Shown here piece by piece: positions 1-48,286 of a DNA stretch of 64,000 nucleotides; the stretch's first letter is position 1; each line of letters starts with the position of its first letter. Both the position numbers and the translations under genes were made by a program. Source of the DNA: Planctomycetota bacterium (GTDB lineage: Bacteria > Planctomycetota > UBA11346); NCBI GenBank assembly GCA_038213805.1, contig JBBQSO010000019.1, forward strand, positions 1,114 to 65,113, in the 5' to 3' direction. Under the pieces are notes generated by a model, which was not told where the DNA came from, made no database searches, and saw only the letters and a list, made by a program, of their open reading frames with translations.

Positions 1-5
1 TGCCC

Positions 6-2051
6 ATGAACGGTGCCAAGTGGTCGCTGCTGGTCCTCACCGCCCTGCTGCTGGTGTACATGGCGGTCGACCGCTGGCGGCAGCCGCAGCAGCTTGAGAA
101 GGTCAGCGAGAGCATCGACCGGCTGAATCGGGCGCTGGAGGATCTTGAGCGTACGAACAAGGACTTGGCGGAGCAGATCGCGCGCAAGCCCGCCTTTGTC
201 CCGAGTCCGCCAACCACAGTCGGAACCGCGCCGCAGACCGGTACCGTGCCTGCGACCCCGGTCGCGCAATCAGCCGATAGCAAGGTACGCGACGGCAATC
301 CCAAACTCGGGGTGAATTTCCTGATTCCATACGACCGCTCCTTTTACCACCCGGAATGGCAAGGCGGGACGCTCAAGCTGTTCTACGACACTCCGCGCCG
401 CCTCAATCCGCTGACCGACAACTCCGCGATCAGTCATGCCGTCTACGAAATCGCCACGGACGGGCTCTGCGATCGCCCCGCGACCACTCCGGAGCAGTGG
501 AGCGAGAGCCTGGCAACTCAGGCCATCATCAGCGACGACTACAAGACCTACACCTTCATCCTGCGCCGCGGGGTGAAGTGGCAGCGCCCCAAGATCGCCA
601 AGCAGCCTGCCTTTGCCTGGCTCGACAAGGATGTCGAGCTGACGGCAGACGACTTCAAATTCGCCATTGATCTGATCCTCGACCCGGCGGTCGATTGTCC
701 CAGCCTGCGCAACTATTACGAGGACATCGATCACGCCGAGGTCGTCGACCCGTACACCTTCCGCATGGTGTGGAAGAAGAAGACCTACAACAGCCTGTCA
801 GCCAGCCTGGGACTGTCGCCGATTCCGCGCCACATCTACGGCCGCAACGCGGACGGATCGCCGATCGCGAAGGAGAAGCTTGGCGTGACCTTCAACCAGC
901 ACTGGTTCGACGAGTTGCGCGGGGTCGCCGGCGTCGGCGCCTATATGCTCGACGAGTACGTGCCGGACAAGGTGCTGCGTCTGCGCCGCAACCCGGACTA
1001 CTGGGGTGTGCCCTACCACTTCGACACCATCGAGTGGAACCTCGAAGTGAAGAATGAGGATGCCCAGCTGATCGCATTCAAGAACGGCCAGGTGCACTAC
1101 CACGGCCTGATGCCCTTGAAGTACAAGAGCGAGGTGCTCGATCATCATGAGGCGCGTTTCGCCGCACTCGACCAGGCAGATCCCAAGGCCGGCCGCAAGG
1201 GCGAGCTCGGCTGGGAGCGGGTCCGGCGCATGGCCTTCTCGTATCTGGGCTGGAACATCCGCAACCCGTTGTTCGCTGACAAGCGCGTACGCAAGGCCAT
1301 GAGCCACGCCTTCCCAAAGGACCGCATCATCTCCGAGGTGTTCTTCGGCCTTGGCCTGCCCGTGCTGACCGACGTGGCGCCTGGATCACAGTACGAGAAC
1401 ACCGACCTCAAGCCCTACGTCTTCGACCTCGAGCGCGCCAAGGCCCTGCTCGCCGAAGCCGGCTGGAAGGACAGCGATGGTGACGGCACCCTCGACAAGC
1501 TGGTCGACGGGAACAAGAAGGACTTCCGCTTCACCATGGTCTACGGCTCGCACGTCGCAGAACTCGACAGCATGCTGCTGATCTACAAGAACGAGCTGCG
1601 CAAGATCGGCATCGATATGCAGCTGAAGACCGTCGAATTCAAAGAGATGATGCGTGTGTACGAGGACCACGACTTCGAGGCGCTGGTCGGGTCCTGGCAG
1701 ACGGACTGGGACGTCGATTACTTCCAGCTCTGGCACTCCAGCCAAGCCGAGCAGCAGGGCGGCAGCAACCACTGCGGCTTCCTCAACGCGCGCGTCGACG
1801 AGCTGGCGGTCAAGCTGCGCGAGACCTTCGAGACGCCCGCGCGCATCGCCATCGTCAAGGAACTCCAGGCGATCATTCACGAGGAGCAGCCGTATACCTT
1901 CTTCCGCAGCTCCGAGGGCATCCTCATCTGGCAGAATCATGGCAAGGCCGCCAAGGAGCAGTACCTGGACGGCGTCGATGAGAGCCTCGACCGCCTCAAT
2001 CCGCTGATCAAGACCAGTCTGCGGCGCATGTACTGGCACTTCCGCCCGTGA
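6..2051 (+). CDS. ABC transporter substrate-binding protein, family 5 (Opp/Dpp peptide-binding type), with N-terminal membrane anchor and coiled-coil segment
   Basis: 681-aa ORF starting at ATG 6. N-terminal hydrophobic helix, then a length and motif pattern typical of SBP_bac_5 oligopeptide/dipeptide-binding proteins. Immediately followed by two permease genes and an ATPase. Confidence 0.7.
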   Translation: MNGAKWSLLVLTALLLVYMAVDRWRQPQQLEKVSESIDRLNRALEDLERTNKDLAEQIARKPAFVPSPPTTVGTAPQTGTVPATPVAQSADSKVRDGNPKLGVNFLIPYDRSFYHPEWQGGTLKLFYDTPRRLNPLTDNSAISHAVYEIATDGLCDRPATTPEQWSESLATQAIISDDYKTYTFILRRGVKWQRPKIAKQPAFAWLDKDVELTADDFKFAIDLILDPAVDCPSLRNYYEDIDHAEVVDPYTFRMVWKKKTYNSLSASLGLSPIPRHIYGRNADGSPIAKEKLGVTFNQHWFDELRGVAGVGAYMLDEYVPDKVLRLRRNPDYWGVPYHFDTIEWNLEVKNEDAQLIAFKNGQVHYHGLMPLKYKSEVLDHHEARFAALDQADPKAGRKGELGWERVRRMAFSYLGWNIRNPLFADKRVRKAMSHAFPKDRIISEVFFGLGLPVLTDVAPGSQYENTDLKPYVFDLERAKALLAEAGWKDSDGDGTLDKLVDGNKKDFRFTMVYGSHVAELDSMLLIYKNELRKIGIDMQLKTVEFKEMMRVYEDHDFEALVGSWQTDWDVDYFQLWHSSQAEQQGGSNHCGFLNARVDELAVKLRETFETPARIAIVKELQAIIHEEQPYTFFRSSEGILIWQNHGKAAKEQYLDGVDESLDRLNPLIKTSLRRMYWHFRP

Positions 2052-2071
2052 TCCGCGCGCCCGTCTGACCC

Positions 2072-3574
2072 ATGACCGCCTACGTCATCAGGCGCCTGCT
2101 GCTGATGATCCCGACCTTCATCGGGATCCTGATCATCAACTTCGCGGTACTGCGCCTGCAGGGGCCGACCCTGGTCGACCAGATGCAGGCCGGCGTGGGC
2201 AAGGGTGGCGGTGAGGGCGGACCTGGCGAGCGCAAGGCGCAGGGGGCGGCCAAGGATGTCGAGAACTACATAGACCGCTTCCGCAGATCCGGGCTGGACC
2301 TGCCAGCGCTGGTCAATGTGCGCGGCTTTACCGGGCGCGACGAAGTCGTCGCACGACTGCGCGACAGCGCGGGCGACGGGCCAAACCGCGAGCGGCCCAG
2401 CGTGCGCAACGGCATCGAGAAGAATCTCTGGCTGGGCGGGCCGCAGCTGGTCGAGCCGCTGCTGGCGGTCGTCGCCGACGACAGTCTCGCCACCCTGCAC
2501 GCGCCGGCGGTGCTGGCCCTGACCTACTGCGCTTATGTCACGGTGACGGCACGCGACCTGGCGCGCATGCCGGCGGAGCGGCTCAACCAGATCCAGGAGC
2601 GCAACGAACGCCTGCGCAACGACCGCATCCGCTACACCAACACCGCCAAGGGCTTCGCCACCGTCGATTCGGAGGCCGCGGCCAAGCGCGCTGACCTGCT
2701 CGCCCTGTTCGCCATTCCCGGCACACAGGCGGAATTCACGGCGGCGCGCGCCACGCGCTGGAGCGACGCGCTGCTGCGCACCGGCTTCTGCGACTTCATG
2801 GCCAAGCTCTTCACCGCCCAACTCTATTCAGAATCCCGCAAGGACTACGTGTTCTCGGTCATCGCTGACCGCTGGTACGTGACCTTCTGGCTCAACACCA
2901 TCTCGATCGTCATCGCCTGGGCCGGCTCGATCCTGCTCGGCATCCGTTCGGCGCGGCGCAGCGGTTCGCTCGAAGACCGGGTGACGACCAGCGGGCTGTT
3001 CCTGGCCTGGTCGATGCCGTCGATGTTCTTCGGGACGCTGTTGCTGTACTACTTCTGCACCGACACGAGTGGTTCGAAGGCCTGGTTCCCAAACCGCGGG
3101 CTGTCCAGCGATGGCTCGATGTGGCTGCCCACCGGGGAGTATCTGCTGGATCTACTCTGGCACGCCTTCCTGCCGCTGGTGGTGCTCAGTTACAACAGCT
3201 TCACCGCGCTCTCGCGTTACATGCGCGCCAACCTGCTTGAGCAGCTCGATGCCGACTACGTGCGCAGCGCGCGCGCCAAAGGCTGCGACGACGACGCTGT
3301 GGTCTACCGGCATGCCGTCGGCAACAGCCTGATCACCATGATCACGCTCGGCGGCGGCCTGCTCGCCGACCTGTTTTCGGGCGCGCTGATTGTCGAACTG
3401 ATCTTCAGCATCCCCGGTCTGGGCTGGCTGATGCTCGACGCCGCCATCCAGTCGGACGGTCCACTGCTGATGGGCTCGACGGTCATCACCGTGTCCCTGC
3501 TGCTGATGGGCATCCTCATCTCCGACCTGCTCTATGCGGTCGTCGACCCGCGCATCCGGGGGCGTTATGCCTGA
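2072..3574 (+). CDS. ABC transporter permease (OppB/DppB-like), with a large inserted soluble segment
   Basis: 500 aa. The C-terminal EAA-loop region and the tail 'SIPGLGWLMLDAAIQSDGPLLMGSTVITVSLLLMGILISDLLYAVVDPRIR' are hallmark OppB/DppB. There is an unusual ~150-aa hydrophilic insertion after TM1. Confidence 0.8.
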   Translation: MTAYVIRRLLLMIPTFIGILIINFAVLRLQGPTLVDQMQAGVGKGGGEGGPGERKAQGAAKDVENYIDRFRRSGLDLPALVNVRGFTGRDEVVARLRDSAGDGPNRERPSVRNGIEKNLWLGGPQLVEPLLAVVADDSLATLHAPAVLALTYCAYVTVTARDLARMPAERLNQIQERNERLRNDRIRYTNTAKGFATVDSEAAAKRADLLALFAIPGTQAEFTAARATRWSDALLRTGFCDFMAKLFTAQLYSESRKDYVFSVIADRWYVTFWLNTISIVIAWAGSILLGIRSARRSGSLEDRVTTSGLFLAWSMPSMFFGTLLLYYFCTDTSGSKAWFPNRGLSSDGSMWLPTGEYLLDLLWHAFLPLVVLSYNSFTALSRYMRANLLEQLDADYVRSARAKGCDDDAVVYRHAVGNSLITMITLGGGLLADLFSGALIVELIFSIPGLGWLMLDAAIQSDGPLLMGSTVITVSLLLMGILISDLLYAVVDPRIRGRYA

Positions 3575-4796
3575 GCAGGGCGGATCCCCGGCACAACTCG
3601 CGTGGTCCCGGTTCCTGGCGCGGCGCAGCTCCCGCTACGGACTGGGCATGCTCGCCGTGATCGTGCTGACCGGGATCTACGCGCCGTTCCTCTCCAACGA
3701 GGTGGCGCTGGTGTGGTGGGACCAGGACGGGCTGCGTTTCCCGCTGATCTGGGACCTCTTCAACCGGCGCATCTACGAGAAGATCTACGACGTCTACTTC
3801 AACGTCCTGGCGCTGCTGCTGCCGATCCTCGCGGTGGTGTTCGCCGTGCTGGGCCGGCGCATCGGTGTGACCGGCCGGTTAAAGATCGGAGTCGCGTCCC
3901 TGGCGCTGATCGGCACCTTCTGCTTGCTGCCGGTGTTCCCGGGGCATGGGGCCCGCGTCGCGGTCTGGGACCACCGCCCCTTCACCGCGTCCGGCATCCA
4001 GGAATGGAGCGCATTACCCGAGGCCAAACGCCCCTTCGCCGTGTTCACCCCGGTCAAGCACCGCTTCGACGCCACCTACCCCGGCGCAATATTACAGTCG
4101 CCTGGAACCATCAATCCGGTCACCGGCGGGCACTATTGGCTCGGCACCGACGCAGGCGGGCACGATGTCCTGACCCACCTGTTTTTCGGCGCGCGCATCA
4201 GCCTGACGGTGGGGCTGGTCGCGGCCGGGTTGTCGTTCCTCATAGGACTGGTGGTCGGCGCGGTCAGCGGCTATTTCGGCGGCTGGGTCGACCTGGTCCT
4301 GCAGCGCATCGTCGAAATCATGATGTGCTTCCCCACCTTCATCCTCATCCTGACCGTGGTGGCGATGTACAGCCGCGACATCTTCTTCATCATGGCCGTG
4401 ATCGGTCTCACCAGCTGGGCCGGAACGGCGCGCCTGGTGCGCGGCGAATTCCTGGCGCATGCGGTGCGCGACTACGTCACCGCCGTCGAAGCCCTCGGCC
4501 TGCCGCGCTGGCGCATCATGTTCCGGCACATCCTGCCCAATGCGATCGCGCCGCTGCTGATCTCGCTGACCTTCGGCATCGCCGGCTCGGTGGGCGCGGA
4601 AAGCGCGCTCGCCTTCGTCGGCCTCGGCGACCCCACCGCACCCAGCTGGGGCGTCCTCCTCGAGCAGGGCCGCGAGAACATCCGCTACCCGTGGCTGATC
4701 TACACGCCGGGACTCGCGATCTTCACGATCGTCATGACGTTGAATCTGCTGGGCAACAATCTGCGCGAAGCGATTGATCCGAAGCAGCGGCAATGA
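3567..4796 (+). CDS. ABC transporter permease (OppC/DppC-like)
   Basis: ATG 3567 overlaps the upstream stop (ATGCCTGA). Contains 'HYWLGTDAGGHDVLTHLFFGARISL...GYFGGWVDLVLQRIVEIMMCFPTFILIL', typical of OppC. The stop TGA at 4794-4796 is the first unit of the heptamer array. Confidence 0.8.
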   Translation: MPEQGGSPAQLAWSRFLARRSSRYGLGMLAVIVLTGIYAPFLSNEVALVWWDQDGLRFPLIWDLFNRRIYEKIYDVYFNVLALLLPILAVVFAVLGRRIGVTGRLKIGVASLALIGTFCLLPVFPGHGARVAVWDHRPFTASGIQEWSALPEAKRPFAVFTPVKHRFDATYPGAILQSPGTINPVTGGHYWLGTDAGGHDVLTHLFFGARISLTVGLVAAGLSFLIGLVVGAVSGYFGGWVDLVLQRIVEIMMCFPTFILILTVVAMYSRDIFFIMAVIGLTSWAGTARLVRGEFLAHAVRDYVTAVEALGLPRWRIMFRHILPNAIAPLLISLTFGIAGSVGAESALAFVGLGDPTAPSWGVLLEQGRENIRYPWLIYTPGLAIFTIVMTLNLLGNNLREAIDPKQRQ

Positions 4797-4834
4797 TGGC
4801 TGATGGCTGATGGCTGATGGCTGATGGCTGATGG
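4794..4834. repeat. Heptanucleotide tandem array (TGATGGC)x~6, left arm of heptamer-bounded element 1
   Basis: Direct reading of the sequence. The array supplies the stop codon of the upstream permease gene and contains TGA in all three forward frames. Confidence 0.9.
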
Positions 4835-4886
4835 AGACAGGATTCCGTGGAAAAGGTAAGCAACATGATGGAGGTCGGAAGGCTCG

Positions 4887-5240
4887 ATGGCCAAGACTTA
4901 CCGGGAACTTCTCGTGTGGCAGGAGGCAATGGCACTAGCAAAAGGGATCTATGTCGTGACCAAGGTGTTTCCCAAAGAGGAGCGATTCGGCCTTATATCG
5001 CAAATGCGTCGCGCTGCCGTATCCATCCCGAGCAATATCGCCGAAGGACATGGCAAATCGAGTGCCGCCCATTTCCTCAGCTACCTCGGCCATGCGCGCG
5101 GATCGCTTTTCGAACTCGAGACACAGGCCGAACTCAGCTGCGAATTCGGCTTCATCTCTGCAGCGGACATGGTGGAATTATCTCTCATGACCACCCGCCT
5201 GGGACGAATGCTAAGTCGATTCATGGAAACTCAGGAATGA
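4887..5240 (+). CDS. Four-helix-bundle protein of the '23S rRNA intervening-sequence protein' family (same fold family as DGR accessory protein Avd)
   Basis: 117 aa, 'ELLVWQEAMALAKGIYVVTKVFPKEERFGLISQMRRAAVSIPSNIAEGHGKSSAAHFLSYLGHARGSLFELETQ' matches the family signature. GC about 52% against about 70% in the flanks. Bounded by inverted heptamer arrays. Confidence 0.7.
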   Translation: MAKTYRELLVWQEAMALAKGIYVVTKVFPKEERFGLISQMRRAAVSIPSNIAEGHGKSSAAHFLSYLGHARGSLFELETQAELSCEFGFISAADMVELSLMTTRLGRMLSRFMETQE

Positions 5241-5243
5241 CGC

Positions 5244-6131
5244 ATGCCCCCTGAACCCACTGCGCCATCAGCCATCAGCCATCAGCCATCAGCCCTCCTG
5301 CAGTTCGACGACCTGCACGTCACCTTCGCACTGCGCGACCGCAACGTCGAGGCAGTCAAGGGCATCAGCTTCTCGGTATCCGCCGGCGAGGTCGTCGCCC
5401 TGGTCGGCGAATCCGGCTCCGGCAAATCAGTCTCCTCCATGTCCGTGCTGCGCCTCCTCCAGGAACCGCCCGCAACCTACCCGCGCGGCCGCATCCTGTG
5501 GAAGGGCGAGGACATCCTGCACATGGACAAGGCGCGCCTGCGCCGGCTGCGTGGTGGCGAGGCGGGGATGATTTTCCAGGAGCCGATGACCGCGCTCAAC
5601 CCGACCTGGACCTGCGGGGACCAGGTCGACGAGGCACTTGCCCTGCACACCGCGCTCGACCAGAAGGCGCGCCGCGCGCGCACCGTCGAACTGTTCCGCC
5701 TGGTCGGCATCCCGCAGCCCGAGACGCGCGCCGACCAATACCCGCACGAGCTTTCTGGCGGCATGCGTCAGCGCGTCTGCATCAGCATGGCGCTGGCCTG
5801 CCGGCCGCAGCTGCTGATCGCCGACGAACCCACCACGGCGCTCGACGTCACCATCCAGGCGCAAATCCTTGAGCTGATCAAGCGCCTGCAGCGCGAGCAG
5901 GGCCTGGCGGTGCTGTTCATCACCCACGACCTGGGCGTGGTCGCCGAGCTCGCCGACCGCGTGGTGTTGATGCGCCATGGCGCGATCGTCGAGCAGGGTC
6001 CCGTAAAGGAGATCTTCACCAATCCCCAGCACCCCTACACCAAGGGACTGCTCGCGTGCCGGCCGCGCTTGGGCGTGCGGCGGGATCGGTTGCCGACGGT
6101 AGATGACTTCATGGCGGGGGCGGGGGGCTGA
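5244..6131 (+). CDS. ABC transporter ATP-binding protein (OppD/DppD-like)
   Basis: Walker A 'GESGSGKS', signature 'LSGGMRQR', Walker B '[12 protein letters not shown]' and the C-terminal oligopeptide-ABC tail. The first ~18 codons are encoded by the repeat element, so the true N-terminus is uncertain. Confidence 0.85.
5264..5294. repeat. Heptanucleotide tandem array (GCCATCA)x~4.5, right arm of element 1 (inverted relative to 4794..4834)
   Basis: Direct reading. Lies inside the 5' end of the ATPase ORF, where it is translated as '[10 protein letters not shown]'. Confidence 0.9.
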
Positions 6132-6192
6132 GGCTCCACCTACCCTGGGATCGCCGAGGTATCATCGGCCGGAACCAGCCGACCTGCCGAGT

Positions 6193-6218
6193 GGAACTGG
6201 GCGAACCCGCACAGTCGG
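6193..6218 (+). promoter_or_regulatory. Candidate ECF-type promoter (GGAAC-N16-GTC) upstream of the sigma-factor gene
   Basis: GGAAC at 6193-6197, a 16-nt spacer, then GTCGG. About 110 nt upstream of the ECF sigma start. This is motif matching only. Confidence 0.2.
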
Positions 6219-6328
6219 TCGGGGTGATGACTGCATCCCCCGCGCCAGTAACAGCTTCGTCACGATCCCACACGACCATTGCCACCCAGGGGTAGAGCGG
6301 CTAAGAAATCGCGTCCCGGTGCGTAGGA

Positions 6329-6913
6329 GTGGCTGTGAGTCCAGGCGATGCCGAGCCATCTGACAGACGACTGCTTGAACGTTACTGCCGTCATGGCGAC
6401 GTCGGGGCCTTCGGCAGCCTGCTCGACCGGCACCAGGGCGACCTGCTGCGCTTCGCGCATTCCCTGCTCGGCGACGCGCATGCCGCCCAGGACGCCGTCC
6501 AGGAGGCGTTCTGCCGGCTGTGCCGCGAGGCGCACCGGCTGGGGCAGGGGGCCGCTGGCCAGGACTCACTGGGGGGTTGGCTGTGCACCGTCGTGCGCAA
6601 CGCCTGCATCGATGTCCTGCGCCGCCGGAGCTACGCGCCCATGACCACCATCGCCGAGCACCAGGAAGGCCAGGGCGCATCTCCCAGCGCTGCCGTCGCC
6701 GCCAGCGACGCCGGCGAATCGCTGTGGCGCGCGGTCGCCACCCTGCCGCCGCTCGAGCGCGCCGCGGTGGTGCTGCGCTACCGCGACGGTCTCAGCTACC
6801 AGGATATCGCCGTGCGCCTGGGCAAGACCGCGACGCACATCGGCGTGCTGCTCCACCAGGGACTCGGACGGCTGCGCCAGAGCGAACGCCTGCGCGCGGG
6901 GGTGATGCCATGA
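6329..6913 (+). CDS. ECF (sigma-70 family, group IV) RNA polymerase sigma factor
   Basis: 194 aa. Region 2 'DAVQEAFCRLCREAHRL...GWLCTVVRNACIDVLRRR' and region 4 'LPPLERAAVVLRYRDGLSYQDIAVRLGKTATHIGVLLHQGLGRLR'. Confidence 0.85.
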   Translation: MAVSPGDAEPSDRRLLERYCRHGDVGAFGSLLDRHQGDLLRFAHSLLGDAHAAQDAVQEAFCRLCREAHRLGQGAAGQDSLGGWLCTVVRNACIDVLRRRSYAPMTTIAEHQEGQGASPSAAVAASDAGESLWRAVATLPPLERAAVVLRYRDGLSYQDIAVRLGKTATHIGVLLHQGLGRLRQSERLRAGVMP

Positions 6914-9900
6914 ACGATGCCATGCACGACCAGACCGTGCCCACCGCCGCCGACGCGAACGGCGATCTCGGCTACCTGCTGACCGCCTACGCCGATGGCC
7001 AGCTGGCCCTCGAAGGCATGGCCTGGGTCGAGGAGCAGCTCGACCGACGGCCCGAGCTGCGCGCGCGCCTCAAGGAGATCCGCGCCGTGCAGGCCGCGCT
7101 GCGCGCGGAGTTCGCGCGCTTCCCGGCGCCGGAGGAACTCGGCGGATTCGCGCGTGGGCAGGTGCTGGACGCGGCGCGGCGCGGCCGGCCGTTCTTCCGC
7201 CAGCGCGGGGCGCAGGCGGCGCTGGTGATGATCTCCATCGGCATCGCGGCCATGGCCGCGGCGGCGGTGTTCGGCCTTCCCGCCAGCGTGGTGCACGGGA
7301 CCCGATCCTATGCCTCCTCCCAGCCGGCATCCGCGCCGATCCAGAAGTTGGAGACGCCACGTGGAGTTTATGACCCAGGTGAGTATGCGATGATCATCGA
7401 CCGCCCGAGCGCAGGTGAGAGCCGCGAGACCGACCAACTCGAAACGGTCCCGGATCGAGACGGATCCACTACCGCCGACGAGGACGGCGACGTCGCAAAA
7501 GGACGCGAAGAGACGCTGAACGAAGCCGACACGGCGTCCGGACACGGTGCCTTCATGGCCCTCGGCGCGGGCGGTGGCACCAGCGGCGGCCGGCGCTCCA
7601 AGCACAAGCCCGGCGAGCCCCCCGCCGCGCCGGGGGCTGCACCGACCGAGCAGCTGGCGCGCGCCGAGCAGGTCGTCGAAGCACGTGATTTCCAGGGCCA
7701 TGCCGCCCCGTTGCAGAAGGACGCTGGAGAGGTCAGCGCATCAGACCGCATGGTTGAGGAGATGGCGCAAGCGGTCGAACCGCCTGCAGCCGCGGCCAAG
7801 CCGGAACAAGTCGTGGTGACCGAAGGGCATTTCGGCGGCGGTAAACGCCTCGTCGCCGCCAGCGGCCACCATGGTGCGACCGATCTGCCTGCACCGGTCG
7901 GGGCGCCGCAGCCGCTCGCCGGAGTGAACGCAAGCCGCTCCAGCGAGGACAAGACCCGCAACCGCGAGCTTCAGTCGCGTCAAGCCGCTGCCGAATCCAT
8001 GTACGATGCCAAGAAGAGCAGTGTCGGCGGTGGTGACGGCAAGCTGCCGCCTGCGCGCCCGTCGTCGCCGCCCGCCGTCGCTGCCAACGGCACCACCTCG
8101 GTCGTCGCCACGCCGCCTGCCTCCAGCACGATAGCACTTCCAGCCAAGCCCGGTTCCACGAAATCGTCTGCGGGAGCCGTCGGTGGCATTGCCTATTCTG
8201 CGGAGCAGTCCGCGGCGAAAACCGGGGACCTGAAGGCGGCGCGGACCGCGCATACCGAGAAGACCCACATCGCCGAGGTCGGGAGGGCGGTCGCTTTCCA
8301 GCTCAATGGCAAGCTCGCCGAGGTCGAGGATGGCCTCAACCGCGCGAAGCAGCAGGGGCTCGACGGACAGCGGGACGGGGCTCCGTCCGCGGCTCCTGCG
8401 CAAATCGGACTTGCAGACCAGGAGTATCGCCAGCTCTCCGCTTCCGCTAACAAGGATCGCCTCCCCTACCTCAATGTCCCGGATCCGCTCGCCACTTTCA
8501 GCGAGCCGCTGCCGGAGTCGCACGAGCAGGCGCAGGCCATGCAGACAGCGGACGACGACCGGTCGATCGCCAAGCTCGACATCGTCAGGGAGCGCTATCC
8601 CAAGGTCTTCAACTCCTTCTCCGACGAGCACCAGTCGGCCGCCTTCTTCCAGGCGACCGTCTCCAGCGTCCGCAGCAACCCTCAGGGCGAGGGCGAGGGC
8701 GACCTGGTCATGCTCACCGTCGGGAAGCAGGACGCCGTCGATGCAGGCACCGAGTTCATCGTCTTCCGCGGCAGCCAGTACATCGTCAAGGTGCGCGCCG
8801 AGAAGGTTCTGAACGGCATGGTCGCATGCAGGGTGATCCCGGGATCCTGGAACGCCAACGGCGCGCAGATCCAGATGGGCGACCTCGCCCAGAACCGCCT
8901 GGGCGGCTCCGACGACGTCGAACGACCCGCCACGTCCGACCAGTCCTCCTCCCCCAGCCAGGCCCTCGCCACCGGCAATGCCCAGCGTGCCCCGCGCGAC
9001 CGCGTCGCCGCGCTGCTCACCACCACCTCGCTGAATGCTACCGCGCCGCTCGCCACCATACTGCGCCTCGCCGCCGGCCCCGACGGCGCCCTGGCCGCCA
9101 GCCCTGCGCTCGATGAGGTCCTCACCCGGCCAGCGCACCTCGAAACCCACGACCTGACCAGCGGCCAAGCGTTGCTGCAGCTCGCGCGCGGCGCCGGCCT
9201 GCAGGCACGTCTGTTGGGTGGAGTGCTGACCCTCGACACCGCGCGCGGGCAGCTCGACCCCACCGACACCCAGGGCCTGGACCGGGCACGCTTCACCAGC
9301 GCCTTCGGCACCGTGCCGATGGTCGCCACCGCCGAGGACGCGCGCAGCACCTTCGCGCTCGATGCCAACACCGCCTCGTTCGAGCGCGCCCGTTCGCAGC
9401 TGCGCAGCGGCCAGCTGCCCGATCCCGCCGCCATCCAGGCCGAGCACTTCATCAACGCCATGCCCATGGATTACCCGGCGGCGCGCGGGCCCGAGGCCTT
9501 TGCGCTCTACGCCGAAGCCGCGCCCTCACCGTTCGCGCTTGGCCCCGCCGATGCGGCGGTGCGCGCACCGTGGGCCGGCCGCACCGCGGTGGTGGCGATC
9601 GGCGCGGTGGCGCGCCCCGCCGCTCCGGACGAACGCCGTCCGCTGCACCTGACGCTGGCCCTCGACTGCTCCGGCTCGATGGCGCAGCCCGGCGGCCTCG
9701 ACCGCGTGCGCCTGGGGCTTGAGGAGCTGCTCACCCACCTGCGCCCGGTCGACACCGTGGCGGTGGTGGCCTTCAGCGACCAGGCGCGCGTGGTGCTGCC
9801 CGCGACCCCGGGCGGCGATTCCGCGCCGATCGCGCGCGCGCTCGCCGGCTTGACCCCGGGTGGCGCGACCAACGCGGTCGAGGGCCTGGCCCTCGCCTAC

Positions 9901-10752
9901 CAGCTCGCGGCCGAGCACCTCGAGCCCGGCACCGAGAACCGCGTGCTGTTCGCCACCGACGGCGGCACCCTGGCCGGGGCCGATGCGCAGGTGGTGATCG
10001 AGCGCGTCGCCGCCTACCGCAGCCGCGGCATCTCGCTGCTGGTGGTCGGCTGTGGTGGCGGCGCCTACCAGGGCCGCACCCTGCAGCAGCTTGCCGACCG
10101 CGCCGACGGCCAGCATGTCTTCCTCGGCAGCGACGCCGATGCGGTCAGCGCCTTCGCCAGCCGCCTGCTCCCCGAGCGCCTCGCCGTGCTAGCCAAGGAC
10201 GCCAAGGTGCAGGTCACCTGGAATCCGCAGCGCGTGAGCCATTTCCGCCTGATCGGCTATGAACAGCGCCGCCTTGCCCACCAGGACTTCCGCAACGACG
10301 CGGTCGACGCCGGTGAGATCAGCCACGACACCCAGGTCACCGCGCTGTACGAGGTGCTGCTGGTCGACGGCGCCACCGGCCCGCTGGGCAGCGCGGCGGT
10401 GCGCTACTTCGACACCCGCCTGCAGCAGGTGCGCGAGCTGTCCTGCCCGCTCGCCGGTGCGGTGCTGCAGGCCGAACCGGGCGAACGTCTGCGCCTGGTC
10501 GCCTGCGCCGCAGAATTCGCCGCGTGGCTGCAGCGCGGCTGGTGGAGCAACGTGCGCCCGACCACGCCGGCGCGCCTGCTCGGCGAGCTCGCGCACTGCC
10601 CGCAGGCCGAGGCGCGCGAGCTGGAGGAGCTGGTACAGCGCGCCGCGGCGCTGCAGCCGCAGCCCGTGCCGATCCCGCTGAACCGCAATGCGCTGCAGTC
10701 CAACACGCTCAACGCCGCCGCGCCGACCGACCAGGCCGCCCCCAAGCCATGA
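6910..10752 (+). CDS. Anti-sigma factor (RskA/ChrR-like N-terminal domain, single TM helix) fused to a long low-complexity extracytoplasmic region and a C-terminal von Willebrand factor A domain with intact MIDAS
   Basis: ATG 6910 overlaps the sigma stop (ATGA). N-terminus 'LGYLLTAYADGQLALEGMAWVEEQL' followed by the TM helix 'ALVMISIGIAAMAAAAVFGL'. VWA domain 'LHLTLALDCSGSMAQPGG...VDTVAVVAFSDQARVV...TPGGATN...VLFATDGG' (DxSxS, T and D of MIDAS all present). 1280 aa. Confidence 0.6.
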   Translation: MNDAMHDQTVPTAADANGDLGYLLTAYADGQLALEGMAWVEEQLDRRPELRARLKEIRAVQAALRAEFARFPAPEELGGFARGQVLDAARRGRPFFRQRGAQAALVMISIGIAAMAAAAVFGLPASVVHGTRSYASSQPASAPIQKLETPRGVYDPGEYAMIIDRPSAGESRETDQLETVPDRDGSTTADEDGDVAKGREETLNEADTASGHGAFMALGAGGGTSGGRRSKHKPGEPPAAPGAAPTEQLARAEQVVEARDFQGHAAPLQKDAGEVSASDRMVEEMAQAVEPPAAAAKPEQVVVTEGHFGGGKRLVAASGHHGATDLPAPVGAPQPLAGVNASRSSEDKTRNRELQSRQAAAESMYDAKKSSVGGGDGKLPPARPSSPPAVAANGTTSVVATPPASSTIALPAKPGSTKSSAGAVGGIAYSAEQSAAKTGDLKAARTAHTEKTHIAEVGRAVAFQLNGKLAEVEDGLNRAKQQGLDGQRDGAPSAAPAQIGLADQEYRQLSASANKDRLPYLNVPDPLATFSEPLPESHEQAQAMQTADDDRSIAKLDIVRERYPKVFNSFSDEHQSAAFFQATVSSVRSNPQGEGEGDLVMLTVGKQDAVDAGTEFIVFRGSQYIVKVRAEKVLNGMVACRVIPGSWNANGAQIQMGDLAQNRLGGSDDVERPATSDQSSSPSQALATGNAQRAPRDRVAALLTTTSLNATAPLATILRLAAGPDGALAASPALDEVLTRPAHLETHDLTSGQALLQLARGAGLQARLLGGVLTLDTARGQLDPTDTQGLDRARFTSAFGTVPMVATAEDARSTFALDANTASFERARSQLRSGQLPDPAAIQAEHFINAMPMDYPAARGPEAFALYAEAAPSPFALGPADAAVRAPWAGRTAVVAIGAVARPAAPDERRPLHLTLALDCSGSMAQPGGLDRVRLGLEELLTHLRPVDTVAVVAFSDQARVVLPATPGGDSAPIARALAGLTPGGATNAVEGLALAYQLAAEHLEPGTENRVLFATDGGTLAGADAQVVIERVAAYRSRGISLLVVGCGGGAYQGRTLQQLADRADGQHVFLGSDADAVSAFASRLLPERLAVLAKDAKVQVTWNPQRVSHFRLIGYEQRRLAHQDFRNDAVDAGEISHDTQVTALYEVLLVDGATGPLGSAAVRYFDTRLQQVRELSCPLAGAVLQAEPGERLRLVACAAEFAAWLQRGWWSNVRPTTPARLLGELAHCPQAEARELEELVQRAAALQPQPVPIPLNRNALQSNTLNAAAPTDQAAPKP

Positions 10753-13700
10753 CCCCACCGGAACATCCCATGCGCCTGCTGCCCTTCGCCGTCCTGCTCG
10801 CCGTCCTGTGCGCGGCCACCACGCCGGCCGCGTATGCCGCGACCGCTCCGGCCGAGGAGCTGCCGCCGCTGGTCTATGTGCCGATCAAGGAGGTGCCGCA
10901 GCTCGACCCCAAGGGCCAGGGCGTGTTCCTGCCCTATGACAAGTTCATCACCTTGTGGGAGGCGGCCAAACCCAAGCCGCCCACCCCAGTGGTCGACACG
11001 CCGCCGGTCGCCGCCGTGCTCGCCGGCTTCACCGTCACCGGGCAGACTCATGGCGACGTCGCGGAGCTGGTCCTGGACGGCACCGCCACCGCGCTCGCCA
11101 AGGGCTGGTCGACGCTGGCGCTGCCGGGCGGCCTGGCGCTCACCGATTTCACCCCCGACGACAAGCGCGTGGTGCTGCAGCGCAGCGGCGACGCCATGCA
11201 GCTGCACCTGCCCGAACCCGGCACGTACCGCTTCAGCGCGCACCTCTCCTTCCCGATCAGCCGCGACGCCGGCGGGCGACGCACCTTGGCGCTGGTCCTG
11301 CCGGTCGCCGGTGCAGGCCGCCTCGATCTGCTCATCGCCGACAACGAGGCGGAGGTCACCCTCGACCCGGTGGTCGCCGCCACCACCATCCCCGGCAAGG
11401 GCGGCACGCGCGTGCAGGCGGTGCTCGGCGGCGCCGCCAACCTGGCGGTGGCGTGGCAGCCGCCGGTGCAGCAGGTCGCGGGCGAGGCGCTGATCCTGGC
11501 CGACCACCAGCTGCGCCTGACCGTGGCCGAGCGCAGCCTGCGCTATGACCTCGCGGCCCAGCTCACCATCCTGCGCCGTCCGATCGACACCATCACCGTT
11601 GCCCTGCCGCCCGACACTCAGGTGCTGGCGGTCGAGGCGCGCACCTTGCGCACCTGGGAAAAGAGCGGCGACAGCGTGGTGCTGCACCTGCATGAGCCGG
11701 TCGAGGGCACCTATCCCGTGGCGCTGCGCCTGGAGCGCCTGCTGCCCGCGCTGGCGCCCGGCGCCAGCCGCACCGTCGCGGTCGCCTGGCCGCTGGTCGC
11801 CGCCGCCGGGCGCAGCACCGGCAGCGTCGCCGTGGTCCAGGCCGAAGGGCTGGCGGTCGCGGTCGAGCGCGCCGAGGGCCTCGCCCAGGTCGATCCCGCC
11901 GAAATCGCCGGCGGTCAGGGCGCGGTGTCGGCCTTCCGCTTCCTGGCGCCCCCGCCCGCCAGCGCCATCGCGGTGACGCGCCTGCAGAGCGACCTGCGCG
12001 TCGCCGTCCATCAGCTGGTGCGCCTTGGCGTCGAAGAGGACCTCATCGCCGTGGTGCTGCAGCTCGATGTGCGCAAGGCCGGGGTCTTCGCCCTGGCCCT
12101 CGACGTGCCCGCCGGCTGGGAACTCGCCGACCTCAGCGGCTTGAGCGTCGACGACACGCGCCTGGGCAAGGCCGAGGGCGGCGTGCGCCGCCTCGACCTC
12201 GCCCTGCGCGGCCGGCTGCTTGGCGCCGGTGAAGCGGTGCTGCGCTTCCGCGCGCCGGCCTCGATCCCGCGCGACGCCACGACCGCGGCCGCGCCGATCG
12301 TCCTGGCGCTGCTGCAGCTGGAAGGCGCACACCAGGTGCGCGGCAGCCTCGCCATCGCCGCCCCGCGCAGCTGGGCGCTGGCCAGCGGCGTGCGCAGCGC
12401 GCTGGGCGGCGCCGAGGCCGAACAGGTGCGCCGCGAAGGTCCGCTCGCCACTCTCGCCCACGAACTCAAGGAGGACGAGGACCTGCCGCTCGCCTTCACC
12501 GTGCTCGGCCCCGCCGCCGGTGTGACCATCATGGCGACGCCGCGCGCCCGCGAGCTCGCCGTGGTGCAGGAGGAAGCGGTCAGCGTCGCCGAGGGCCGCG
12601 TGCGCAGCCTGGTCACGCTGCGCGGCGAGGTGCGCTACAGCGCCGCCGCCGCGGTGCACGTGCGCCTGCCCAGCGCGCTCGACGCGCAGGTGGTGTTCGG
12701 CGGCGCGCTGCTCGCCGAGCACGTCGCCGGCGCGCGTGAGGGCGGCCTGACCACCTGGGAGCTGCGCTTCCAGGCGCCGGTACTGGGTCCGTTCACCCTG
12801 ACCATCGACAGCGCCCAGGAACTACCCGTGCTCACCGCCGGCACGTCGGTCACCGTAACCGTGCCAGCCGTGAGCGTGGCCGAGCAAGGCCTGCGCCTGA
12901 CGCGCGTGTGCGCGGTTGCGCGCACCGGCACCATCGAGGTCACCGCCAGCGCCGAAGGCCTCGACAACGTCGCTGCCGCCGACCTGCCCGCCGGCCTGCA
13001 GGGCCAGGGCGTGGTCGCTGGCTTCCAGGGCACCAAGCCCGGCGCGCTCACGCTCGAACTGGTGCGCCACGATCTGGTGGCGATGGCCGACGGCGCCGTC
13101 GCCGCCGCGCGCTACACCGCGGTGCTGGGCGACGACCAGGTGCTGCGCGTGCGCGGCGATCTGGTGCTGGCGACGCGCGGGCGCCCGTGGTTGGACCTGC
13201 GCCTGCCCGAGGGTGCCGAGCTGCTCGAAGTCGCCGTCGACCGCCGCCAGGGCCGGCCCAGCCGCCGCCCCGACGGCAGCGTGGTGGTGCCGCTGGGCGA
13301 CGGCAACGGCCTGCGCAGTCAACGCGTCGCCTTCGTCTATGAGCAGCGTCTGGGCGACGGCCGGGTCGGGCGCAGCGGCAGCGCGACCATCGCGCTGCCG
13401 CACCTCGGCACCGCGCCACAGGGCGAGAAGGGTGAAAAGGGCGCGCGCCCGCTGCCGGTCGGCCGGGTCGAATGCGTGCTGTTCGTGCCCGACGGCCTCG
13501 CGGCCTACGGCTGGTCCGGCGACCTGGAGCGTGTGGCGGCCAGCAGTGACGCGTGGTCGCGGCTGCTTGCCGGAATCGGCGCGACCGTGCAGCCGCGCAG
13601 CGCCGGCTTCGCGCCGCTGCCGGGCGGCGACGATGGGCTGACCGTGCCCCTGCCCATCTCCGGCACGCCGCACCAGCTGGTACGTCTTGGTGATGGCGGC

Positions 13701-14174
13701 AGCGCGCATCTGCGCTGGATCGACCGCGACCTGCTCACCCTGCTCGCGCTCGCCGCGGCGCTGGTTGGCGGCGTGCTGGTGTGGCTGGCGCGGGCGCGCA
13801 CGGAAGCGGTCGGCGCGCTGACCATCGCCGCGCTGGTGCTCGCGCTGGCCGCTGCCGGCGCGTGGTTCGCGGTGATCGCCGGCTTCGCCCTGGGCGTGGG
13901 CGCGGTGGTGCTGCTGCTGCTGGTGCGCGGCATGATGCGCCGCGTCGTGAGTGCGCCCGCCATGCCGGTGGTCGCCCCCGATCCGTGGCTTGAGTCGCCG
14001 CGCCCGGCCGCGGTGCCACCCGTGGCGATGCCTGCTGCGGCCGCCGAAAACCCGGACGCCCTCCCCGATGCCAGCGCGCCGGCTGATTCCGACGCGCCAC
14101 CGGCCCCGGATGCTGAGCCGCCCGCTCTTGGCAAGCGTCCGGACGGCTCCGACGACGACCGGAAGCAGCCGTGA
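10749..14174 (+). CDS. Large exported protein of unknown function (1141 aa) with signal peptide, two C-terminal TM helices and a Pro/Ala-rich tail
   Basis: ATG 10749 overlaps the upstream stop (ATGA). Signal peptide 'MRLLPFAVLLAVLCAATTPAAYAA'. Internally recurring 'LHLPEPGTYRFSAHL / VVLHLHEPVEGTYPVALRL' beta-rich modules. C-terminal hydrophobic segments at about aa 1000-1080. No recognisable catalytic motif. Confidence 0.45.
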   Translation: MTPPEHPMRLLPFAVLLAVLCAATTPAAYAATAPAEELPPLVYVPIKEVPQLDPKGQGVFLPYDKFITLWEAAKPKPPTPVVDTPPVAAVLAGFTVTGQTHGDVAELVLDGTATALAKGWSTLALPGGLALTDFTPDDKRVVLQRSGDAMQLHLPEPGTYRFSAHLSFPISRDAGGRRTLALVLPVAGAGRLDLLIADNEAEVTLDPVVAATTIPGKGGTRVQAVLGGAANLAVAWQPPVQQVAGEALILADHQLRLTVAERSLRYDLAAQLTILRRPIDTITVALPPDTQVLAVEARTLRTWEKSGDSVVLHLHEPVEGTYPVALRLERLLPALAPGASRTVAVAWPLVAAAGRSTGSVAVVQAEGLAVAVERAEGLAQVDPAEIAGGQGAVSAFRFLAPPPASAIAVTRLQSDLRVAVHQLVRLGVEEDLIAVVLQLDVRKAGVFALALDVPAGWELADLSGLSVDDTRLGKAEGGVRRLDLALRGRLLGAGEAVLRFRAPASIPRDATTAAAPIVLALLQLEGAHQVRGSLAIAAPRSWALASGVRSALGGAEAEQVRREGPLATLAHELKEDEDLPLAFTVLGPAAGVTIMATPRARELAVVQEEAVSVAEGRVRSLVTLRGEVRYSAAAAVHVRLPSALDAQVVFGGALLAEHVAGAREGGLTTWELRFQAPVLGPFTLTIDSAQELPVLTAGTSVTVTVPAVSVAEQGLRLTRVCAVARTGTIEVTASAEGLDNVAAADLPAGLQGQGVVAGFQGTKPGALTLELVRHDLVAMADGAVAAARYTAVLGDDQVLRVRGDLVLATRGRPWLDLRLPEGAELLEVAVDRRQGRPSRRPDGSVVVPLGDGNGLRSQRVAFVYEQRLGDGRVGRSGSATIALPHLGTAPQGEKGEKGARPLPVGRVECVLFVPDGLAAYGWSGDLERVAASSDAWSRLLAGIGATVQPRSAGFAPLPGGDDGLTVPLPISGTPHQLVRLGDGGSAHLRWIDRDLLTLLALAAALVGGVLVWLARARTEAVGALTIAALVLALAAAGAWFAVIAGFALGVGAVVLLLLVRGMMRRVVSAPAMPVVAPDPWLESPRPAAVPPVAMPAAAAENPDALPDASAPADSDAPPAPDAEPPALGKRPDGSDDDRKQP

Positions 14175-17100
14175 ACCGCGCTGCGCACGGCCTTGCGCTG
14201 CTCGCCGCGTTGCTGCTTGCCACCAACGCCACGCTACGCGCCGAGGAACGGCCGACCCAGCCCCTGGTGCTGCCGATGGTCGAGCTGCTGCGCCAGCTCG
14301 ATCCTCAGCGCGAGTGGCAGTTCGTGCCGCTCGCCGACTACCGCGCGCTGGTCGACGCGGCGCACCATGCTGCGGATGCGGCCGTCAGCGCACCGGGCGG
14401 CGCCTGGATCGAGCAGGCCACCGTCAGCGGCGAACTGCAGGGCGACCGCGAGCTGCGCTGCACCGCCGAACTCACCGTGGTCAGCGTGGCCGTCAGCGCG
14501 ACGCGCTGCCCGCTCTTCGCCACCGCTCCGGCCAGCCTCGGCGCGGTCACCATCGATGGCCAGCCCGCGCTCTACGTGCTCGGCGCGGCCCTGGAGCTGG
14601 TGGTGCCCGCGCCCGGCCGCCACCACGTGGCGATCGCCTGGGGCACCCGCCTTGCCGACGGCGACGAGCGCGTGCATCGCGGCCAGCTGGTGCTGCCGCT
14701 CGCCGCGGGCGCCGACGTGCACCTGCGCGCCACCACGCCGGGCGGTTTCAGCGGATCCGGCGTGATCGAGGAATCCGGCGCATCGCCGGGTTGGCGCATC
14801 ACCGGCAGCCGCGGTGGCGCGCTCGCGCTTTCCTGGCATCCCGGCCGCCTGTCCGGAAGCGACAGCGCGGTCTTCGGCGTCGAGCAGGCGGTGCAGGTCG
14901 CCGTCGTCGACGGCCCATCCTCGTTCCACTGGGTTGCGCGCCTCGCCGCGCGGCGCGGCAGCCTGCCGACCTCGCTCGACTTGGTGCTGCCCGCTGGCTG
15001 GACGATGGGCAGTCCCGGCCCGGGCGTGGTCGCGCTGACCGGTCCTGGAACCGCCGCCGATCCCGTGCACCTGACCCTCGATGCGCAGGCGCGCGAGATC
15101 GCCTGCGACGGTTTCATCGCCGCCGCCGCGCCGGTCGGCCTGCCGCTGGTGCAGGGGGCCGCCTACCAGGGCGGAACGGTGACGCTCAGCGCCTCCAGCC
15201 CGCTCGCCTACACGCTGCCGGGCGGCTGGCTGGCGACACCGGCCACCACCGAGGGCGGCGCAGTAGTGCGCCGCTTCGCACTCGCCGCACCCGACGCGGG
15301 CATGCGCGTCGCGCTGCGGCCCGCGGCCGACGGCCTGACCGTCGCCAGCACCGCCAGCGTCGCGATCGGCCCCACAGCGCACGGCGCGCGCCTCACCCAG
15401 GTGCTCACCATCTCTGGCGCTGGCCGGCCGCGCTTCGCCTTGCCGCTCCAGCTGCCGGCCGGCTGGCAGCTCACCGCCTTCGCCGCGACACCACCGGGCG
15501 CCATCGCCGAGCTCGCGGGCAGTGACGATCCCGGCACGCTGGTGCCGGGTGCCAGCGTCACGGTGCTGCTCACGCCCCGGCCCACGAATGAGTCGGTCAC
15601 GCTCACGCTGACGCTGAGCGGCGATACGACGGCCGTGCCGGTGCGCCTCGCCGCCATCCCCAGCGCGCAGCGCCTCAGCAGTCGTCTGGTGGTGCTCGCT
15701 GCACCGGGGCTGGAGGTCGGCATCACCGCCGGCGGCTGGCGCCTTGCCGAGCGCGCCGTGGCTTTCCCTGCGGACCGCGCCGATCAGGTACGCGCCGAAC
15801 TGTTCTGCACCGGCAGCACGCCCCCACTGGCCCTCGCGGTCGCGCCGCGTCGCCTCGCCGCCACCGCCGAGGCGGTGTGCTACCTGCTGCCGCGGGGCCC
15901 CGACGACACCTGGGCGCGCATCGACCTCCGCCTGCAAGTACAGGAGGGCGAGCTCACCCGCCTGCGCCTCGCCCTGCCGGTCGCTGCCGGCGCGCATCTG
16001 CATGCCGAGGATGCGCTGTTCACCGTCACCACGCTCGCCGGCGCAGTGCTGCTGGAAGCGCGCGCACCGTGGCGCGGTGAGCACTTGCTGCGCATCGAAG
16101 GTCCGCTCGCACCCGGCGAGGCGGGGCGTCTGCCGCAGCTCACCCTGAGCGCGGGCGCGGAGGGGGCTGACGCGATCGCGGTGCCGCTGCGCCAGATCAC
16201 CGCGGTGCAGGCGCCCACCGACCTCGATCTCGCGATCGTGCCCGGACGTGCGACGCTGCCGCTCGACGGTGACGAGCTGCCCGCGTGGAGCCGGCCGATC
16301 CCCGGTGCGCTGCTGGCGGGCGCCTGGCGCATGCCCGCGGGCGCCGCGCCCGGCACCCTGACCCTGGTCCAGCGCGCCCTGGCCGCGGTACCGGCGGGCT
16401 TCATCGACCGCGCCAGTGCGCGCACCCAGGTCTCGGCCGGTGGCGTCTCGACCTGGCTGCGCCTGCGCCTTGCCGCACCGGGCCTGGCCGAGCTGCCACT
16501 CGGCCTGCCCGAAGGATCGACCCTGCTCGCCGCGACCATCGACGGCCAGGCGACCGCGGTGCGCCGCCATGGGCACGAGCTGGTGCTGCCGCTGCCCGGC
16601 CGCACCCAGGTCGGGATCGTCCTGCTCTACGCGCTGCCCGCCCTACCGGATGCGGACGGCGAACTGGTCCAGCCGCTGCCGCGCCTCGCCGGCCTGCCCA
16701 TCACCACCTGCAGCTGGCAGGTGGCAATCGATGACCGCTGGCGCGTCATCCCCGTCGCCGCGCCGGACGCACTGCCGCTGACGATGCTCGTCGACGGGTC
16801 GCCGCTGCGACCGTGGTTCGCCACCTGGCGCACGCCGGGCGTCGGCAGCGACGTGCCGCCGCCGCCCGGCCTCGGCCAGCAGGCCGGCGACGATGCGCGC
16901 CAGCTGGTCGCCGCCGACCCGGCGCCGGCTGCCCCCGGTGAGCCCACGCTCATCCTTGCCGGGCAGCTGCTCGCCGGCGAACGCAGCGGAGACGGCGCCG
17001 TGCTGCGCCTGCGTCTCGCCGATCTGGAACGACTGCGCGGCGCCGACCGCACCGGCTGGGCGCTGGCCGCGATGTGCGGCGTCGCGTTGTTCGCGGTGGG

Positions 17101-20632: not shown

Positions 20633-20673
20633 ATGCGGCCGCGCCGGGCCGCCTCAGGATTCATCGTCCACAC

Positions 20674-48115: not shown

Positions 48116-48286
48116 GCGCCCACGATCCGGCCCGTCCGGGTCGTGGGCTTTCTCTACAGCTTGGATGCTTGCAGAGGGGCTGCGCGCGCCCAAGACGGTG
48201 ATCCCCGGCGCACGACCTCGCGTGCGCGGTGTCCGCCATGAGTGCGCACCGCGCGGCCGCTGCTCCCCTCCTCCGATGCACGATCC

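Follow-up and report, generated by a model that had tools for sequence, protein, structure and literature searches.

A 64,000-nt stretch of DNA from a Planctomycetota bacterium of the UBA11346 lineage (assembly GCA_038213805.1, contig JBBQSO010000019.1, positions 1,114 to 65,113 of the forward strand), referred to here as the window, carries a gene at 6910-10752 (+) for a 1280-aa protein that joins an anti-sigma domain (ASD) to a VWA domain with a complete metal-ion-dependent adhesion site (MIDAS). The gene lies directly behind an extracytoplasmic function (ECF) sigma factor gene and directly ahead of g1 and g2, two genes for giant envelope proteins. The explanation that accounts best for the data, and that is likely to be correct, is that the protein is a single-pass VWA anti-sigma factor gating the ECF sigma factor of its own operon, with the giant proteins as the best ligand candidates. 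It is a real but ordinary kind of regulator within a distinctive, uncharacterized operon.

The open reading frame (ORF) starts with ATG at 6910 and ends with a stop codon at 10750-10752, exactly where the first-pass annotation of this DNA had placed it. The anti-sigma motif reported in that annotation is present as AYADGQLA at residues 26-33. The cytoplasmic ASD spans residues ~19-95 (6964-7194, +) as delimited by the PRK13920 match, hhalign and alignment columns. NCBIfam PRK13920, "putative anti-sigmaE protein," gives a match of 1.1e-7 over residues 19-121 that stays under the family cut-off, and the conservation profile shows that residues 20-70 are strongly conserved, with the highest values outside the VWA module. 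Distant homologues of like overall architecture bear a genuine Pfam zf-HC2 motif. Alignment of the zinc-less window family to these relatives with hhalign gave a 95.9% probability and an E-value of 5e-9 over 74 columns. A joint profile of the window family and its zf-HC2-bearing relatives matched ChrR (2.2e-7), RslA (5.1e-7), RsiW (5.4e-6) and DdvA, with values ranging from 2e-7 to 2e-5.

The zinc site of these domains, H-x3-C-x2-C, is retained as H/C/C in the distant relatives and is lost in the window family, where the histidine is replaced by Q43 and the two cysteines by R47 and L50. The N-terminal domain is therefore assigned on its sequence as a class I ASD that is not zinc-binding, and the window protein is not a member of the zinc-binding anti-sigma (ZAS) subgroup. 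Pfam zf-HC2 matches it at E = 0.037 only. Neither RskA (PF10099) nor the FecR domain was matched in whole-protein and segment Pfam scans. The earlier description of the N terminus as "RskA/ChrR-type" was thus imprecise: the RskA part falls with the missing PF10099 match, and what stands is a generic class I ASD without zinc ligands. By analogy with other single-pass class I anti-sigma factors, this domain would bind its ECF sigma factor and inhibit it. The opposite view, that the motif is a chance resemblance and that a YfbK-type membrane protein merely lies behind a sigma gene, draws on the poor zf-HC2 score and on the failure of single-sequence and close-family PDB searches to return an ASD; it is largely refuted by the hhalign and NCBIfam matches, is further opposed by the conservation peak at residues 20-70 and by the 4-bp overlap with the sigma gene in every close locus, and is hardly credible.

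A Kyte-Doolittle scan found one segment over threshold, a hydrophobic helix at residues 100-128 (7207-7293, +), in agreement with the single transmembrane (TM) helix proposed at first reading. The helix is preceded by a basic stretch, RRGRPFFRQRG, that fits an N-in topology with the ASD in the cytoplasm and the remainder of the protein outside. A comparable TM helix is located at residues ~80-155 in 23 of 29 homologues, and the other 6 are under the scan threshold.

The C-terminal part of the protein has the YfbK-type order vWF_A, VWA and YfbK_C, and all three domains exceed the Pfam gathering thresholds: PF12450 at residues 802-876 (9.7e-14), PF00092 at 914-1081 (8.1e-14) and PF12034 at 1091-1166 (2.1e-24). 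Pfam VWA_2 is also over its cut-off. An AlphaFold2 (AF2) model of residues 545-1250 had a mean predicted local distance difference test score (pLDDT) of 84.3 and a predicted template modeling score (pTM) of 0.75. In this model the vWF_A N-terminal domain occupies residues ~792-901 (9283-9612, +; pLDDT 80-94), the VWA domain residues ~912-1085 (9643-10164, +), and the YfbK_C β-sandwich with its C-terminal helices residues ~1091-1248 (10180-10653, +; strands at model positions 549-637 and helices at 648-704). A Foldseek search of the PDB with the model returned VWA domains throughout, among them ArnB (5e-17), 4fx5, ITIH1 and BatB (3IBS, TM-score 0.71). The match to ANTXR2/CMG2 had a TM-score of 0.82 and a root-mean-square deviation of 2.8 Å at 26-27% identity. 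The prediction that this region would fold as a VWA domain is therefore borne out by the model.

The MIDAS is composed of D919, S921 and S923 in the DCSGS motif at residues 919-923 (9664-9678, +), T987 in GGATN (9868-9870, +) and D1017 in ATDGG (9958-9960, +), which is the complete DxSxS...T...D set that the first-pass annotation had read from the sequence. The model places these residues at the C-terminal ends of β1 and β4 and just before a helix, the canonical positions. D919, S921, S923 and D1017 are conserved in 28 of 28 homologues and T987 in 27 of the 28, including relatives that are only ~35% identical. Together with the profile-based ASD homology and an ATGA overlap with the ECF sigma gene, these data uphold the original identification of an anti-sigma factor that bears a VWA/MIDAS module outside the cytoplasm.

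The sigma factor gene at 6335-6913 (+) matches Pfam Sigma70_r2 (2.4e-15) and Sigma70_r4_2 (6.1e-13) and scores 83 bits against NCBIfam sigma70-ECF TIGR02937 (cut-off 42.9), a generic family that is its sole NCBIfam assignment. Four-bp overlaps occur at all three junctions that follow: ATGA between the sigma and anti-sigma genes, ATGA at 10749 between the anti-sigma gene and g1, and GTGA at 14171 between g1 and g2. Prediction of sigma-70-type promoters and intrinsic terminators across window positions 6000-20900 returned none. Because of the overlaps and the lack of a predicted internal promoter or terminator, the four genes at 6335-20632 (+) look like a single self-contained operon of translationally coupled genes.

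The gene g1 (10749-14174, +) encodes a 1141-aa envelope protein with a signal peptide, ~900 aa of tandem β-sandwich domains and C-terminal TM helices. The AF2 model of g1 had a pLDDT of 80.8, and Foldseek related it to OST1/ribophorin I, the legs of integrin α and α2-macroglobulin-like (A2M-like) proteins, all with low TM-scores that denote a generic likeness. The gene g2 (14171-20632, +) encodes 2153 aa and by BLAST consists of two fused g1-like modules. In BLAST alignments g1 pairs with the second half of g2, and in the 2250-aa proteins at the homologous loci L004 and L006 it pairs with either half; at L095 and L097 the counterpart of g2 is two separate genes of ~1000-1200 aa each. Because g1 is homologous to half of g2 and g2 is split in relatives, g1 and g2 together are assigned as three paralogous ~1000-aa modules, each predicted to have a signal peptide, tandem β-sandwich domains and C-terminal TM helices. 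The g2 genes of the window and L001 are fusions; the separate genes, which occur in other members of this lineage, have overlapping or adjacent ends (L095, 12120-18337; L097, 12534-19528), and a cluster of internal TM segments near g2 residues 1000-1070 shows where the first gene formerly ended. Searches of g1 and g2 against Pfam and NCBIfam, as whole proteins and as halves and up to E = 10, returned nothing. The g1 family is large: in a library of 1.84 billion proteins, 8753 representatives of 50%-identity clusters were matched at E ≤ 1e-3 and 3157 at E ≤ 1e-30. Proteins with the g1/g2-family module (window 10749-20632; homologues P0030-P0225) occur with one module at ~1100 aa and with two at ~2200-2700 aa.

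The order sigma factor, VWA anti-sigma factor and giant protein or proteins is conserved well beyond the window. It is kept at the close relatives L001 and L094, at the distant loci L004, L006 and L008, where the sigma factor is ~30% identical, and at L032, L036, L040, L049 and L073, census loci from the Planctomycetes-Verrucomicrobia-Chlamydiae (PVC) group. The relationship is reciprocal, and searches begun from three g1 homologues led to L095-L097. A sigma gene adjoins the VWA anti-sigma gene in all homologous loci examined and overlaps it by 4 bp in every close one, and the genes flanking the module differ at every locus. These comparisons indicate co-inheritance of sigma factor, anti-sigma factor and giants across Planctomycetota, Kiritimatiellia and Lentisphaerae, and probably in Verrucomicrobiota. 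Conserved gene order supports a functional link between the anti-sigma factor and the giant proteins, and it fits both the giants as binding partners and the giants as output of the regulon.

The proposed mechanism starts with the N-terminal ASD, which would hold the sigma factor at the membrane, while the VWA module would extend into the periplasm on a long flexible tether. By analogy with other MIDAS domains, the metal site would engage an acidic residue on a protein ligand. Making or breaking this contact would shift the stability of the anti-sigma factor, likeliest by opening it to regulated proteolysis, a route known from other anti-sigma factors of the single-pass type, and the freed sigma factor would then transcribe its own operon, including g1 and g2. 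The co-encoded giants are the foremost ligand candidates, and in that case the VWA module would be a feedback sensor of their assembly; synteny is the support for this last step. That g1 or g2 is the VWA ligand is accordingly a tentative proposal, which ranges from unlikely to possible but doubtful. A more elaborate version for the PVC group, in which the VWA/MIDAS module coordinates an acidic residue through its metal and so docks on the three ~1000-aa β-sandwich proteins like an integrin head on its "legs" and the state of assembly gates sigma release, is unlikely. If true, this version would describe an envelope machine that monitors itself and a new way of signaling through an anti-sigma factor, and it would give a first function to a family of >8000 representatives that is without annotation.

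A different account of the same protein keeps the anti-sigma factor and assigns the VWA/MIDAS module another input: a protein of the periplasm or cell surface whose gene lies elsewhere, a ligand from outside or the availability of divalent cations. The proteins g1 and g2 would then be sigma output only. Sigma-adjacent YfbK membrane proteins of Acidobacteriota, Dehalococcoidia, Eisenbacteria and Alteromonadaceae have no giant ORF downstream, and the module evidently works without giants there; co-transcription alone also accounts for the synteny equally well. Against this account, the pairing with giants in the PVC group outlasts both the drop in sigma identity to ~30% and the full turnover of flanking genes, an association stronger than that of a typical regulon member. 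Sensing of something other than the giants is possible, although on the doubtful side.

Several results weigh against the proposal that the protein is an anti-sigma factor with the giants as candidate ligands. Neither the window sequence alone nor a profile restricted to the close, zinc-less family directly matched a solved ASD in the PDB, and the ASD assignment depends on the zf-HC2-bearing relatives and on the NCBIfam match. Conservation of the MIDAS is general to YfbK-type modules and is by itself no sign of a sensing role. Outside the PVC group, giant downstream genes are missing for many of the YfbK-type proteins that adjoin a sigma gene; therefore, the VWA module cannot universally depend on giant proteins. 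A literature search found no binding, proteolysis or transcription data for any VWA-bearing anti-sigma factor. The papers that name both an anti-sigma factor and VWA (on A. brasilense RpoE6 and on Solibacter) do not concern the window architecture.

The first-pass annotation had called a MIDAS-bearing anti-sigma factor unusual, and the distribution of the module contradicts this view. A census of the YfbK module in GTDB species-representative genomes gave at least 595 confirmed loci. A survey of upstream genes covered the best 80 of these; in ~22 the YfbK-type gene is immediately preceded by an ECF sigma gene in the same orientation. The sigma-adjacent loci belong to Planctomycetota, Kiritimatiellia, Lentisphaerae, Verrucomicrobiota, Acidobacteriota, Dehalococcoidia, Eisenbacteria and Alteromonadaceae. 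Thirteen sigma-adjacent loci without a match to the ASD profile were inspected singly; each encodes a short cytoplasmic N terminus, a linker and then the YfbK module, and a TM helix is predicted in 10 of the 13. No Pfam ASD was matched in the sigma-adjacent YfbK proteins from outside the PVC group, which are putative anti-sigma factors by genomic context. The window sigma factor is 20-38% identical to the other sigma factors that adjoin YfbK-type proteins. Because these identities are so low, several ECF sigma clades probably use YfbK-type VWA anti-sigma factors.

The architecture is also already part of the ECF classification. A VWA-bearing anti-sigma factor was described for ECF289, a group derived from the old group ECF20, in which the anti-sigma gene at position +1 encodes DUF3520 and VWA (Casas-Pastor et al. 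2021, ECF classification 2.0; PMC7826278). DUF3520 is PF12034, the YfbK_C domain, and the window protein has the domain content of an ECF289 anti-sigma factor at position +1. It is therefore designated ECF289-like by domain content, an assignment in which the sigma factor's own clade plays no part. The main text of the classification paper makes no mention of giant co-encoded proteins (PMC7826278). The anti-sigma architecture is thus no surprise to specialists, and the noteworthy part is the conserved PVC operon with its giants.

Pairs of ECF sigma and anti-sigma factors are a major class of bacterial signaling systems, and the input signal is not known for most groups. VWA-bearing anti-sigma factors are common over many phyla, and the DxSxS motif of the MIDAS is an easily mutated handle on the sensor ligand. 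The PVC version additionally offers a candidate ligand in its own operon, from a large unannotated family of giant envelope proteins.

Comparison with known systems locates the window protein among several related architectures. The class I anti-sigma factors ChrR (2Q1Z/2Z2S), RslA (3HUG), RsiW (5WUQ) and DdvA (8RLZ) begin with a homologous helical domain, have a TM helix or sensor domain after it, and are likewise encoded beside a sigma gene. Their sensors are different: that of ChrR is a cupin and DdvA is CHAT-linked, whereas the window protein has a VWA sensor and has lost the ZAS zinc site. E. coli YfbK has the same three-domain module of PF12450, VWA and PF12034 with an intact MIDAS. It is a stand-alone periplasmic protein or lipoprotein of unknown function, whereas the module in the window protein is tethered to a TM helix and an ASD. 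BatA and BatB of the aerotolerance (Bat) operon are also membrane-anchored MIDAS VWA domains encoded in operons with other large envelope proteins. The Bat proteins lack an ASD and a sigma gene, however, and the window VWA domain is of the YfbK subtype; no MoxR, DUF58 or BatC/D genes were found in the module. Genes of Bat-operon type do occur a few genes upstream of the module at two homologous loci, DUF4159 at L004 (3806-6046) and DUF58 at L094 (6762-7667), possibly by coincidence.

In overall shape the window protein resembles the YfbK-like vWA "force transducers" of Planctomycetes, Verrucomicrobia and other groups, in which a disordered or proline-rich linker connects a TM helix to a C-terminal vWA domain (PMC12204202, Mol Biol Evol 2025). 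This likeness bears on the idea that the window protein is mainly a structural or adhesive tether that joins the giants in a trans-envelope complex, with sigma binding secondary or with a FecR-like positive (pro-sigma) role. A TonB/TolA-like transducer role has been proposed for proteins with a TM helix, disordered linker and YfbK-like vWA domain, both in the PVC group and in further phyla (PMC12204202). This proposal favors such a tether, as do spacers between TM helix and MIDAS of up to ~1400 aa, which suggest reach across the envelope, and the resemblance of g1 to membrane-anchored β-sandwich "legs" (integrin α, ribophorin I). In the force transducers, however, the TM helix bears a TonB-like SHLS/His motif and the gene adjoins tolQ/tolR-like motor genes; the window protein has neither. 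Its TM helix, AQAALVMISIGIAAMAAAAVFGLPASVV, contains no histidine and no SHLS motor-binding motif, and no tolQ, tolR or exbBD gene is present among the annotated neighbors in the window or at the homologous loci. Conservation of the N-terminal ASD and the constant presence of an ECF sigma gene upstream point instead to regulation, and a mainly structural role is improbable. The window protein is thus distinct from the ZAS, RskA-family and FecR-type proteins and from the TonB-like vWA force transducers.

The TM helix and the VWA module are separated by a low-complexity periplasmic linker of ~450 aa (7294-8649, +), which is rich in Ala, Gly, Ser and Pro by composition and poorly conserved. Its length is variable, and in homologues the MIDAS lies 445 to 1388 aa beyond the TM helix. 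The linker is followed by a small β-barrel-like domain at residues 581-662 (8650-8895, +), with AF2 strands at model positions 37-118 and a pLDDT of 79-90. This domain has no Pfam match and is restricted to the homologues P0001-P0006 (P0001 is 100% identical to the window protein); in the others it is replaced or absent. P0008 and P0015-P0017 have a different domain inserted at this site ("PDLDIPEPGG...VVAPDSW..."), and other close relatives have none there. Because the β-barrel is swapped for another domain or missing among close relatives, the periplasmic spacer is, from these alignments, one that accepts domain swaps. A conserved small α/β domain at residues 695-777 (8992-9240, +) lies directly before the YfbK module. 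Its AF2 secondary structure has the order β-α-β-β-α-β-β, which is reminiscent of STN/secretin-N0 domains, and the domain may be STN-like. Pfam STN at E = 0.11 is the sole sequence hint of this relationship, and the family profile of the domain matched nothing in the PDB.

The sigma gene is preceded by a conserved block of ~40 nt at 6299-6337 (+; 6299-6334 as a listed part of the operon) that begins GCTAAGAAATCGCGTCCCGGTGCGTAGGAG and has the consensus GACTAAGAAACCGCATCCCCGTCCGTAGGAGCGGTTGTGAG. It is the sole alignable stretch upstream of the sigma gene across five loci with differing upstream genes, and it occurs once in the window, where 0 copies are expected by chance. An AGGAG ribosome-binding site is located inside the block, which may function as a promoter or leader. 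The ORF list starts the sigma gene at 6329. A GTG at 6335 agrees with the start in the homologous loci, which, together with the position of the conserved block, suggests that 6335 rather than 6329 is the true start. A SigW-like ECF promoter in the block (AAGAAAC...CGTA) was considered and is not claimed, since its spacing is ~12 nt and 16-17 nt are needed.

The operon is preceded directly by genes for an Opp/Dpp-type peptide ABC transporter (window 1-6131, +), comprising an SBP_bac_5 binding protein, two permeases and an ATPase; this neighbor is not kept at other loci. A convergent NHL-repeat gene lies downstream of the operon. NCBI has no names recorded for the window proteins. At locus L010 (5755-6279 and 7462-8004), which encodes the zf-HC2 and YfbK protein P0026, there is a second, divergent ECF sigma gene, then a 223-aa protein, a 1037-aa protein without Pfam matches and, further along, a CsgG-family gene; the VWA anti-sigma gene at L010 has no giant gene behind it, and the contig ends soon after. 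Elsewhere in the window, a 1366-aa ORF at 48242-52342 (+), apparently unrelated to the anti-sigma factor, encodes an N-terminal AMP-binding (adenylation) domain and C-terminal hexapeptide-repeat transferase repeats.

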